Virus record (IMG/VR): IMGVR_UViG_2740892230_000012
From: a virus
Taxonomy: Duplodnaviria > Heunggongvirae > Uroviricota > Caudoviricetes
DNA: 25,147 nt
Strand: one strand, 5' to 3'
A model generated the notes under the pieces. That model worked only from the letters and a program-made list of their open reading frames with translations. It was not told the origin of the DNA and did no database searches. The position numbers were made by a program, and so were the translations under genes. Shown piece by piece: positions 21,694 to 23,624 of the stretch. The first letter of the stretch is position 1; each line of letters opens with the position of its first letter.

Positions 21694-22299
21694 TCATCGA
21701 AGGCATTGCGTCCTGATGTATTCCTGAAGCGTTCTCAGTGCTGTTTGGTCGCTGATGATTCCGTCCCGGATACCGAGAACGTTTCGTCCAGCAACTGGAG
21801 AGAGTTCGACGGTGGCATCATTGCCCATGCCGGAGGCGCTGGAGGTTTCGGCTGAGGATGGCACAGGGCATTTTCCTTTGACGAACACCCGACCACCATT
21901 ATCAAGCTTGCGCCGAAGAGCATCATTTTCAGCTTTCGCATCAGCTAACTCCTTCGTGTATTTAGCATCGAGTGCATCAGCAGAACGCTGGCGCTGCTGC
22001 ATGTCAGTAATGGTGGCGGTCGCCTGCTTCAGCTCACTGACTTTTTTATCTCGCTGTTCTTTGTAGGCGATGGCGTTATCACGGTAATGATNNNNNNNNN
22101 NTGCATCGAGCGCAGCAACATCACGCTGACGCATCTGCATGTCAGTAATTGCCGCGTTCGCCAGCTTCAGTTCTCTGACATTTTTGTCGCGCTGGGCTTT
22201 GTAGGTAATGGCGTTATCACGGTAATGATTCAGCCCCAGACTAAGCACACCACAGGCTACCAGCAGGACAATAATCACCACACACAGAACACGGTTCAT
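21694..22299 (-). CDS. Rz: i-spanin Rz (contains N-gap at 22092 with a duplicated allelic segment)
   Basis: [83 protein letters not shown]... matches recalled lambda Rz through the N-terminal half. Confidence 0.85.
21735..21941 (-). CDS. Rz1: o-spanin Rz1, lipoprotein embedded in the +1 frame of Rz
   Basis: [44 protein letters not shown]... has a lipobox (VVGC) and a proline-rich mature region, fully nested in Rz as in lambda. Confidence 0.75.
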
Positions 22300-22300
22300 A

Positions 22301-22387
22301 TCACCACCAACGGATTGCCCAGACCAGAACAGCAATGGCCACAATACGAATGGCAAATGCCATTGCCCGAATAAGTTCAGCACTCAT
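22301..22387 (-). CDS. hypothetical 28-aa hydrophobic peptide directly upstream of Rz
   Basis: [28 protein letters not shown]; its stop TGA lies 1 nt before the Rz ATG; below the ORF-track length cutoff, found by manual translation. Confidence 0.25.
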
Positions 22388-22517
22388 CTTTTTAAAGTTC
22401 ACGATTTCAGCGCAATGACCAGTTTTGCCAGCCCATACAGCATCGGAGACACAGCAATACCGACCGCCACCCACTTAATAGCAAAAGCCAGCGCTCTGCT
22501 GATGTCATCAGTCACTG

Positions 22518-22649
22518 TCACCCCAGCAGCCCCGACGAAGACAACATCACCCAGGCGAGGGACAGAAAAAGAGCAACCAGCATTAGTGAAAATGAAATAC
22601 CGACAATCACACACAGGACCTTTGCCGGCGTTATGAGTTTGTCTGACAT
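22518..22649 (-). CDS. hypothetical 43-aa single-pass membrane peptide
   Basis: MSDKLITPAKVLCVIVGISFSLMLVALFLSLAWVMLSSSGLLG; AAGGGG Shine-Dalgarno 5 nt upstream of the ATG. Confidence 0.3.
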   Translation of the reverse strand: MSDKLITPAKVLCVIVGISFSLMLVALFLSLAWVMLSSSGLLG

Positions 22650-22651
22650 AG

Positions 22652-22747
22652 CTACCCCTTAATTGCCACAATTAACTGGGATACTACCCATAAAAAAGGG
22701 ATGCTCCAGACCAGCAAAAATTTCCAGTTTGGTAATTGACTAATCAT
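22652..22747 (-). CDS. hypothetical 31-aa single-pass membrane peptide
   Basis: MISQLPNWKFLLVWSIPFLWVVSQLIVAIKG; GGGAG about 9 nt upstream; its stop overlaps the Shine-Dalgarno of the next peptide. Confidence 0.3.
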   Translation of the reverse strand: MISQLPNWKFLLVWSIPFLWVVSQLIVAIKG

Positions 22748-22810
22748 GAGTCGCAACTCCCTAATCAGTTTGCTAAAATCAATCAAGGCAGCCTCCCATA
22801 GCTTACTGCC

Positions 22811-22858
22811 ATAAAAACAAAACCCCGCTTGCTGCCAACAAACGGGGTTTTTACTTTT
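22811..22858. terminator. bidirectional intrinsic terminator-like hairpin downstream of the endolysin
   Basis: AAAACCCCGCTTGCTGCCAACAAACGGGGTTTTTAC: CCCCG/CGGGG stem flanked by A-run and T-run. Confidence 0.5.
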
Positions 22859-22941
22859 ATTCACTTACGTTTCGCCAGTTCGCAGGATTTCGTGTTATCC
22901 GCCCGCGTGGCCATGCCTTATTTTTCAGCAAAATATTCTGC

Positions 22942-23624
22942 TTATCTGTCGATACCCCAGCACGCCAGCGCGCTCTCCTGGTCACGACGGGATACCTGAC
23001 CGTAGCAGTTGTTTGAACGAATACGGCAGTCTCTGCCACCGTCCTTAATCCACCNNNNNNNNNNCTCACTTACATTTTGCCAGTTCGCAGGATTTCATGT
23101 TATCCGCCCGCGTGGCCATGCCTTATTTTTCNNNNNNNNNNCTTGGCCAACGTCATTTATTAGCAAAATATTCTGCTTATCTGTCGATTCCCCAGCACGC
23201 CAGCGCGCTNNNNNNNNNNTGCTCCCCTGCGATCACCAGCATTAATTCGTCTGTAAAACGTCGACGGGAAACACTTACCGGGACCAATGTTGTACGGACA
23301 GAATGACGCGATCCCCGCTTTCTGGGGTTCGGTCAATGGCACTCTGATGTTTTTCTCCACCCATGCCAGCGCCTTATCACGTTCGATGGCGTTAACCTGG
23401 TCGCATTTCTCCTTCGACAACTTCATGCCCGGGACGACAGGTTTACCATCCACCAGAATGGCACCGCGACAGATGGTCCAGATACCCGCGCCATCACGGT
23501 ATGCCGTGGTGTGGTTACCTTCCTTTTCATCCAGAAACTGGTCGAGAATGTCAGGCGCAGGCGCACCAGCGGCAATCAGCGCCAGAACGGCAGCCGACAG
23601 GCCGTATTTGATTTTGGTGTTCAT
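22942..23624 (-). CDS. SAR endolysin, GH24 T4-lysozyme family (span inflated by three N10 gaps and duplicated C-terminal segments)
   Basis: MNTKIKYGLSAAVLALIAAGAPAP is a Gly/Ala-rich weakly hydrophobic N-terminus typical of signal-arrest-release domains; catalytic spacing E-8aa-D-5aa-T in DEKEGNHTTAYRDGAGIWTICRG; C-terminus ...WIKDGGRDCRIRSNNCYGQVSRRDQESALACWGIDR. Confidence 0.85.

Follow-up and report, generated by a model that had tools for sequence, protein, structure and literature searches.

Between the endolysin gene R and the i-spanin gene Rz, the virus record IMGVR_UViG_2740892230_000012 (Caudoviricetes; 25,147 nucleotides (nt) from an E. coli prophage, hereafter the window) appears, from its sequence, to carry four real genes for single-pass inner-membrane mini-proteins belonging to three families, named A, B and C/D. 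In kind, they would count among the small accessory membrane proteins encoded in late or lysis operons of phages. The open reading frames (ORFs) lie on the minus strand, where the R stop codon (22944-22942) and the Rz ATG (22299) leave a spacing of 642 bp. An earlier reading of the same letters, called here the original prediction, had announced about 640 bp of contiguous sequence at this place, and both statements hold, with zero N within 22290-22945.

Past a terminator-like hairpin, the remainder of the interval is tiled by the four hydrophobic mini-ORFs, in three different frames. Their same-strand coverage amounts to 99% of 491 nt, a value attained by 8 of 2000 dinucleotide shuffles, and four strongly hydrophobic ORFs were attained by 10 of 2000. 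The 19-residue Kyte-Doolittle mean lies between 1.9 and 2.9 for every peptide from A to D, in line with the one predicted transmembrane (TM) helix per ORF announced originally. The AT-richness relative to the flanking genes, also reported at that stage, turned out to be modest only: the G+C fraction is 0.42-0.49 over 22550-22850 but 0.54 over 22400-22549.

Protein-coding potential of the reading frames

Ratios of nonsynonymous to synonymous differences per site (pN/pS) were derived by the Nei-Gojobori method on unique sequences. For C, D and B, the ratio was lowest in the called frame. C-type genes gave 0.19, with 0.24 in both the last 19 codons and the first 17 outside the codons of the search pattern, and their variable sites were distributed as 12, 4 and 23 over codon positions 1, 2 and 3. 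D-type genes ranged from 0.24 to 0.39. B yielded 0.47 over codons 1-28 and 0.62 overall, with pairwise values of 0.43-0.48 at pS 0.4-0.6, including the comparison of the window with phage 933W; a moderate constraint of this kind is usual for TM mini-proteins. Conserved motifs were also observed across Escherichia, Salmonella, Citrobacter, Enterobacter and Klebsiella. Analysis of these substitution patterns clearly indicates that C/D genes are protein-coding under purifying selection. B and A are very probably protein-coding as well, which for A is supported by a charged N-terminus kept across genera.

The original prediction had designated two points on which it could fail, namely the conservation of the frames among homologous regions and the identity of the translated strand. 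The minus-strand frames are conserved, and the antisense frame is not a conserved unit. Coding by the plus strand, for example through a 73-aa ORF at 22415..22636, is thus very improbable. All homologues keep the antisense frame open, and its pN/pS is the second-lowest, but an open antisense frame sharing third positions is an expected by-product of NTN-rich hydrophobic codons, and for C the antisense ratio is 0.42 versus 0.24 in sense. Since the 73-aa ORF spans the B-C junction, which is nonexistent in the common order C then B, it does not form a conserved unit. It would also oppose the entire late operon, and the ends of BLAST matches at minus-strand ORF boundaries count against plus-strand coding.

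Families A and B

ORF A (22652..22786, minus strand; phrog_6632) encodes a charged N-terminal segment followed by one TM helix. The frame of 31 aa from ATG 22747 to 22652, described originally, is present, but a longer form of 44 aa, which starts at TTG 22786, is likelier. This TTG is preceded at 5 nt by GGGAGG (duplex with the anti-Shine-Dalgarno (anti-SD) sequence of about -10 kcal/mol), and the additional N-terminal residues, MIDFSKLIRELR, are kept in 44-45 aa homologues from five genera. Because the homologues of Salmonella, Citrobacter, Enterobacter and Klebsiella, all of 44-45 aa, share the same MIDFSKLIRELR start, A most likely begins at TTG 22786. Among the loci fetched for comparison, designated by L numbers, L005 (NZ_CP027435) is a decayed prophage with insertion sequence flanks in which A is a pseudogene at about 1570-1660, with a premature stop (…VVSQ, stop, IVAIK), while B, R and Rz are intact. 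Locus L011 harbors an unannotated 32-aa A-family ORF at 1690-1789 (MAEKLSTWKFILIWLVFAIMASGYFIGQIRWW), which stops 1 nt before an ATG (MKRVLYVV...) located 30 nt upstream of, and in frame with, the Rz start chosen by the Prokaryotic Genome Annotation Pipeline (PGAP). A remnant of the R gene 3′ end just before this ORF suggests repeated recombination at the L011 junction.

ORF B (22518..22649, minus strand; phrog_4906) starts 2 nt past the A stop and encodes 43 aa with one TM helix, behind an AAGGGG Shine-Dalgarno (SD) motif (anti-SD pairing of -8.4 kcal/mol). Its length is exactly 43 codons in nearly all members, with conservation of the core VGISFSLMLV. Homologues, down to 62% identity, are known solely from E. 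coli and Shigella. A B homologue was found in 276 phage records, including 933W, phi24B, Min27 and most phages carrying Shiga toxin (Stx) 1 or 2; many of the listed phage-record rows have no gene annotated at this position. In 933W (L146, AF125520; record 27424-27569), an intact unannotated 48-aa B-family ORF occupies the supposedly 'empty' 153 bp between the antirepressor gene ant and Rz, its ATG overlapping the ant stop. In the re-annotated Sakai genome (L148), the B homologue is ECs_5707. Two further ideas about B were rejected: a fusion with C by a -1 frameshift at G GGG TGA, which would give a two-helix, holin-like product, found no support, the junction resembling a recombination scar, and B as a copy of the Rz TM segment could not be judged from the motif VLCV(I/V), which both contain but which is too short.

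The paralogues C and D

ORF C (22399..22515, minus strand; phrog_1115/4493/3246) starts at GTG 22515, 2 nt past the B stop, with an anti-SD pairing of -6.0 kcal/mol, and encodes 38 aa. It corresponds to the fourth hydrophobic frame mentioned in the original prediction and is a genuine C/D family member. ORF D (22301..22402, minus strand) encodes 28 aa if translation begins at ATG 22387; a start at GTG 22402, whose sequence overlaps the C stop (GTGA), would give 33 aa. Either form ends with RWW. As predicted for the frame 22387..22301 of 28 aa, its TGA stop is located 1 nt before the Rz ATG.

C and D are, judging by their sequences, paralogues of one C/D family. They have in common the core R-A-x-A-F-A-I-(K/R)-x-V-A-(V/I), followed by either a long C-terminal end, ...SPMLYGLAKLVIALKS, for C or a short one, ...WA(V/I)RWW, for D, and natural recombinants pair either N-terminus with either end. 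Full-length C has 48 aa (MKNGLELKAPVTDD..., beginning with MKNGLELKAP) and full-length D has 37 aa (MKGIEVETPASLDL...). A profile search over 1.84 billion cluster representatives recovered the family in only 23 clusters, all of small proteins, whose full-length members keep an MKNGLExDAP-type N-terminus. The C of the window is N-terminally truncated, its first residue being the V of the ancestral ...APVTDD... sequence. As N-terminally shortened copies, C and D may have low expression or some redundancy in this array.

Translation and transcription signals

The gaps between the mini-cistrons measure 12 nt or less. SD motifs, which the original prediction had given to its first two ORFs, are seen for A (at TTG 22786) and B (AAGGGG), but D is without one. 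The last codons of D, TGGTGGTGAT, agree with the extended SD at 8/9 positions and act as the SD of Rz (-6.2 kcal/mol), whose ATG lies 1 nt past the D stop. In the fetched loci, 86 copies of the junction TGGTGGTGA-N-ATG were counted, always with the next gene immediately following, which is Rz in 57 instances and a lipoprotein gene in 23. Members of the A family also end with RWW when they are the last gene ahead of Rz. Since this tail is found in both A-type and D-type members that abut the next gene, it is set by the ribosome-binding site of the downstream gene.

The hairpin announced in this interval was located at 22819..22851 (minus strand) and forms a G+C-rich stem of 15 pairs. Because an A-run precedes it and a T-run follows, it resembles an intrinsic terminator on both strands, and homologous hairpins elsewhere differ in their stem sequences yet still pair. 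Consensus scans of the window, L013 and L007 revealed no sense sigma-70-like promoter from the hairpin to the genes, although such scans can miss real promoters, and no terminator was found between the mini-genes and Rz. Strand and order agree between an intact reference and the window: holin, (YdfR), R, mini-genes, Rz/Rz1 and terminase. The lack of a sense promoter and the location of the Rz SD inside the last codons of D make the mini-genes look like late-operon cistrons. In the simplest reading, we infer that they belong to the Q-antiterminated late transcript and are translated alongside Rz.

Promoter-like sites were observed on the opposite strand. The window has a putative sigma-70-like site, CTGACA-18-CACAAT with an upstream TG (22643..22672, plus strand), which overlaps the B start and points through A to the hairpin. 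It is the only such site here, where 2.3 are expected by chance, and it is not conserved in L009. In two related loci, the start codon of full-length C/D is overlapped by an antisense site (TGGACA or TAGTCA, 18 nt, TATACT; on the opposite strand at L013 1416-1445 and L007 1442-1471) that matches the sigma-70 consensus at 9-10/12 positions. Within the non-coding sequence upstream of C/D, conservation is highest in the 40 nt surrounding this site. The site faces a two-way hairpin (L013 about 1323-1352, L007 1369-1401), giving a predicted RNA of about 75-80 nt. Rfam returned sub-threshold matches only, to the sar antisense RNA of phage P22, at L011 1336-1407 and L013 1319-1422, and no match in the window.

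Distribution and gene order

About 590 complete E. coli genomes, O55:H7, O103:H2, E2348/69 and ST131 strains among them, contain a 701-nt stretch with the whole array at no less than 99% identity. Parts of a 521-nt core were detected in 1944 of 5426 complete E. coli genomes (about 36%), at up to 12 places per genome. The BLAST matches break exactly at ORF boundaries, as A+B, B+C, B alone, C alone or D alone. In a set of about 120 IMG/VR contigs, retrieved by the back-translated C/D motif, the mini-genes lie on the strand of the lysis genes, between an endolysin gene and either Rz or a short lipoprotein gene (51-60 aa, here Lpp51) wherever both flanks are visible, and the endolysins upstream are of four unrelated types. 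The most frequent gene order is R-C-B-Rz (28 contigs), with R-A-B-C-D-Rz, the order of the window, in about 25 contigs, M15 peptidase-D-Lpp51 in 16, R-D-Rz in 10, GH108-C-B-Lpp51 in 5 and R-C-D-Rz in 4. Rarer orders include ant-A-B-D-Rz and one contig in which a lambda-R-type endolysin is followed by C. The mini-genes thus behave as independent cassettes, which phages shuffle at ORF boundaries. Their absence from lambda and from the cryptic prophages of K-12 indicates that they are accessory and not essential.

A protein-pattern scan of the GTDB species-representative genomes gave no confirmed relative, and a degenerate DNA pattern gave only chance matches to unrelated metagenome-assembled genomes there; the E. 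coli and Salmonella representatives are evidently without mini-genes.

All families are already catalogued, as hypothetical proteins and PHROG families, with uneven annotation. Hidden Markov models of PHROGs were matched significantly, along the greater part of the model, by A (phrog_6632, E-value 1.4e-13, positions 1-43/45), B (4.5e-21), C (3e-24) and D (4.4e-07), with stronger scores for the full-length forms of C (1.6e-33) and D (7.4e-16), and the families concerned (6632, 4906, 1115/4493/3246) are all labelled 'unknown function'. RefSeq holds 'hypothetical protein' entries for B (WP_001280935), C (WP_042004856, from CTG) and D (WP_032140280), and PGAP places three 'hypothetical proteins' in the interval, namely B, D and a 51-aa C that begins at an unusual CTG. 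Start choices vary among annotations, from 31 or 44 to 70 aa for A and over 38, 51, 60, 71 and 83 aa for C; phage records give A as a 70-aa protein running through the terminator and C as 38 aa. Exact-sequence look-ups returned identical proteins in thousands of contigs with only the labels 'hypothetical', 'membrane' or 'prophage protein'. Sequence searches of Pfam, NCBIfam, PADLOC and the PDB gave no match for the mini-proteins. We found no mention of them in the literature searched on lysis cassettes, 933W, Stx-phage comparative genomics, ribosome profiling (Ribo-seq) of enterohaemorrhagic E. coli (EHEC) and prophage small RNAs, and the Sakai Ribo-seq and Hfq-CRAC (cross-linking and analysis of cDNA) supplements have no entry at the Sp5 coordinates. 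The ORFs were not recognised in the original prediction either, which agrees with the hypothetical label that all databases give them.

Comparison with known systems

The original prediction had proposed a holin or antiholin, a membrane toxin or an exclusion moron. The genes do appear to encode small membrane proteins, but no match to a holin, toxin or defence family was obtained. Like the holins and antiholins of lambdoid phages, such as pinholin S21, with its antiholin form, and lambda S105/S107, the mini-proteins are small, have at least one predicted TM helix, are encoded near the endolysin in the lysis cassette and would be made late. They also display small-residue helix faces of the kind by which holin TM helices pack, as in the S21 glycine zipper. 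Unlike holins, however, the mini-proteins have a single TM helix and hardly any hydrophilic C-terminal tail: past the hydrophobic run, A ends with KG, C with KLVIALKS and D with RWW, while B has no further residue, so that none carries a charged hydrophilic tail. Moreover, they have no holin match in Pfam or NCBIfam, the homologous cassettes already possess a separate annotated holin gene upstream, and the mini-genes accompany no single type of holin or endolysin. As far as their sequences tell, the mini-proteins fail the definition of a holin. They differ from i-spanins, in which a long and largely helical periplasmic domain comes after the N-terminal TM helix, in ending 0-8 residues past the TM helix, with no periplasmic domain, and in being followed by a separate Rz/Rz1 pair.

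Two precedents concern small or accessory proteins in phage release. The hokW-sokW locus of the Sakai prophage Sp5 is a toxin-antitoxin pair of type I whose hydrophobic inner-membrane peptide aids phage release (PMC8621323). The mini-proteins resemble it as prophage-borne small hydrophobic peptides with, next to full-length C/D, a candidate antisense promoter; they are unrelated to Hok in sequence, are sited inside the lysis operon, whereas hokW-sokW is located elsewhere in its prophage, and have no toxin-mRNA promoter that we could find. The releasin gp25 of Mu is an accessory lysis protein, membrane-tethered and cytoplasmic, whose whole length corresponds to DUF2730 (PMC9239132). It offers the likeness of a non-holin, membrane-anchored accessory factor in cassettes with signal-anchor-release (SAR) or cytoplasmic endolysins, but the mini-peptides have only 28-48 aa, with neither DUF2730 nor any other Pfam match. 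Morons, in the part of PMC4104026 that cites Juhala et al. 2000, are described as having their own promoter and terminator and as being expressed in the lysogen. Like bor, lom and HK97 gp15, the mini-genes are optional extra genes between late genes, mosaic in distribution and apparently encoding membrane proteins, as morons often do. In contrast to morons, they have their hairpin upstream rather than downstream, no promoter was found for them, and their translation signals are common with those of Rz.

Possible function of the mini-proteins

We consider it quite possible, though somewhat short of probable, that the mini-proteins are accessory inner-membrane modulators of lysis. This proposal builds on their presumed late co-expression, their strict placement in four unrelated cassettes, their small-residue helix faces and the precedents above. 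The genes would be transcribed only when the hairpin after R is passed by Q-antiterminated late transcription, and translated together with Rz, D probably being coupled to C. The products would insert into the inner membrane alongside the holin, the SAR endolysin and the i-spanin, where helix-helix contacts via the small-residue faces (A.AFAI..VAVG in C/D, VGISFS in B) could tune the membrane step of lysis. The tuned step might be the timing or completeness of holin triggering and depolarisation, or the hand-over to envelope disruption. A holin-specific antiholin is disfavoured, since the endolysins that accompany the mini-genes are of four unrelated types and the annotated holins of several.

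Several observations weigh against a role in lysis or against functional products. The genes are optional, K-12 Qin and DLP12 being without them, and the R-Rz junction also hosts ant, which makes position in the lysis cassette weak evidence for a lysis function. No similarity to a known holin, antiholin, releasin or spanin was found in Pfam, NCBIfam or PDB sequences. A terminator-like hairpin stands upstream, and the negative promoter result comes from a consensus scan. At the level of the single genes, A has been pseudogenised at least once (L005), B is constrained only moderately, the 38-aa C and 28-aa D of the window (C38 and D28) lack the conserved MKNGLExDAP N-terminus, and the anti-SD pairing scan revealed no SD motif for D.

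The mini-genes might instead be morons expressed in the lysogen to the benefit of host or prophage, for example by blocking the entry of superinfecting DNA or by modulating a host membrane protein, which we regard as rather unlikely. Their presence/absence polymorphism and mosaic shuffling, the slightly lower G+C of the region, the many copies per genome (up to 12-17 places) and the terminator that bounds the module on one side would all suit such genes, as would the fact that the same junction takes other non-lysis insertions (ant), with bor/iss just downstream. A classical moron is disfavoured, however, by the finding of neither a sense promoter, in three contexts examined by consensus scans downstream of the hairpin, nor a terminator separating the mini-genes from Rz. 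The embedding of the Rz SD in the last mini-gene implies that the mini-genes are built into the late transcript as cistrons, read-through in the lysogen would be halted by the upstream terminator, and PADLOC gave no match.

Depolarising peptides of the type I toxin kind, silenced by an antisense RNA in the lysogen and released at induction to help trigger lysis, are an unlikely explanation. Their expected size (below about 60 aa) and hydrophobicity are those of the mini-proteins, hokW-sokW is a precedent (PMC8621323), and in related loci an opposite-strand promoter match over the start of full-length C/D is aimed at the two-way hairpin, where weak, below-threshold Rfam matches to P22 sar also fall. 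The plus-strand site of the window likewise points through A to the hairpin. These promoter-like sites are nevertheless consensus matches, that of the window stands at chance level and is not conserved in L009, and the window, where C is fused behind B, lacks the element found upstream of C/D. In addition, the consensus scan revealed no promoter for a toxin mRNA, the Rfam families stayed below threshold, and Pfam and NCBIfam showed no similarity to a known toxin. It is still less to be expected that some ORFs, especially C38 and D28, are mere recombination scars or serve in cis only, by delivering ribosomes to the Rz start. The loss of the native start and conserved N-motif by C38, the missing SD of D, the RWW tail common to the unrelated A-type and D-type families when they abut the next gene, and the A pseudogene would agree with this, and an array that is at least 99% identical in about 590 genomes provides no selection test of its own. 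Against it, family-wide amino-acid constraint extends well past the junction codons, motifs are conserved across genera, and the ORFs are open in every array copy seen.

Flanking genes and lipoprotein cassettes

The window as a whole contains 36 runs of exactly 10 N and is a scaffold of joined pieces. Runs at 22092-22101, 23055-23064, 23132-23141 and 23210-23219 are examples, and those around R and Rz are flanked by near-duplicate variants of one segment, which probably derive from several prophages of one genome. The R gene (22942..23624, minus strand), encoding a SAR-type lysozyme, is interrupted by three runs of 10 N and reads as 154 aa up to the first artefactual stop. The near-duplicate pieces on both sides of its N-runs indicate that R as written is a chimera; its final contiguous piece terminates at the stop 22944-22942, and intact R homologues of 177 aa are found in loci L001 and L005-L008. 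Rz (21694..22299, minus strand; 201 codons) is chimeric as written too, since a HYRDNAI.YK segment is present on both sides of the N-run 22092-22101. Inside Rz, the o-spanin ORF Rz1 (21735..21941, minus strand) is listed with 68 aa and a VVGC lipobox.

Directly 3′ of the R stop, the 20-nt junction AGAATATTTTGCTGAAAAAT (22920..22939, minus strand) marks a conserved module boundary, with exactly one perfect copy per locus in 93 of the 148 fetched loci. A second copy, with 2 mismatches, is located in the window at 23155-23174 (minus strand). The junction comes right after the R stop in R-type cassettes and after the lipoprotein gene in M15/GH108 cassettes (L013, L026). The approximately 70 nt from AGAATATTTTGCTGAAAAAT to the hairpin (CGGATAACACGAAATCCTGCGAACTGGC...) are highly conserved and non-coding. 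A 17-aa ORF, MATRADNTKSCELAKRK, just 3′ of R was rejected as a gene, since its DNA is kept among homologous regions but its ATG is not.

In L012 (1377-1746, M15 peptidase), L013 (1448-1745, GH108 endolysin) and at least 20 IMG/VR loci (e.g. L026 and L043), a D- or C-type gene is followed by the TGGTGGTGA-N-ATG junction and then by the lipoprotein gene. The lipoprotein after the mini-gene, of 51-60 aa with an LVGC lipobox and three Cys, belongs to phrog_7528 ('unknown function'). Rz/Rz1 are not annotated in L012 and L013, and the six-frame ORF list of L013 contains no Rz/Rz1 candidate. The lipoprotein might stand in for a spanin or serve in exclusion. L012 also harbors an ORF without annotation at 1177-1393, Cys-rich and of 71 aa (MSFKHYYVNKNAQSNGDHEVHAEGCSYLPE...CYWCAKECHTS), which lies between the region of the M15 endolysin and the D-type gene.

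Significance for lambdoid lysis

Lysis by lambdoid phages is usually described as the work of a holin, endolysin and spanin system. Roughly one in three complete E. coli genomes and most Stx-converting phages have one to four extra membrane mini-genes in the middle of this cassette. Comparative studies of lysis cassettes overlook them because of their inconsistent annotation, with genes missing in 933W and CTG or over-long starts in RefSeq. The Mu releasin shows that lysis cassettes still conceal new component classes (PMC9239132). It is conceivable, though on the improbable side, that the three families represent a widespread new class of lysis components, Stx phages included, which would act in the membrane to set when or how the envelope fails, and that D together with the lipoprotein acts as a new, minimal device for the last, outer-membrane step in M15/GH108 cassettes. 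If the mini-proteins alter the timing or efficiency of lysis, they would affect the phage burst and, in Stx phages, the release of toxin.

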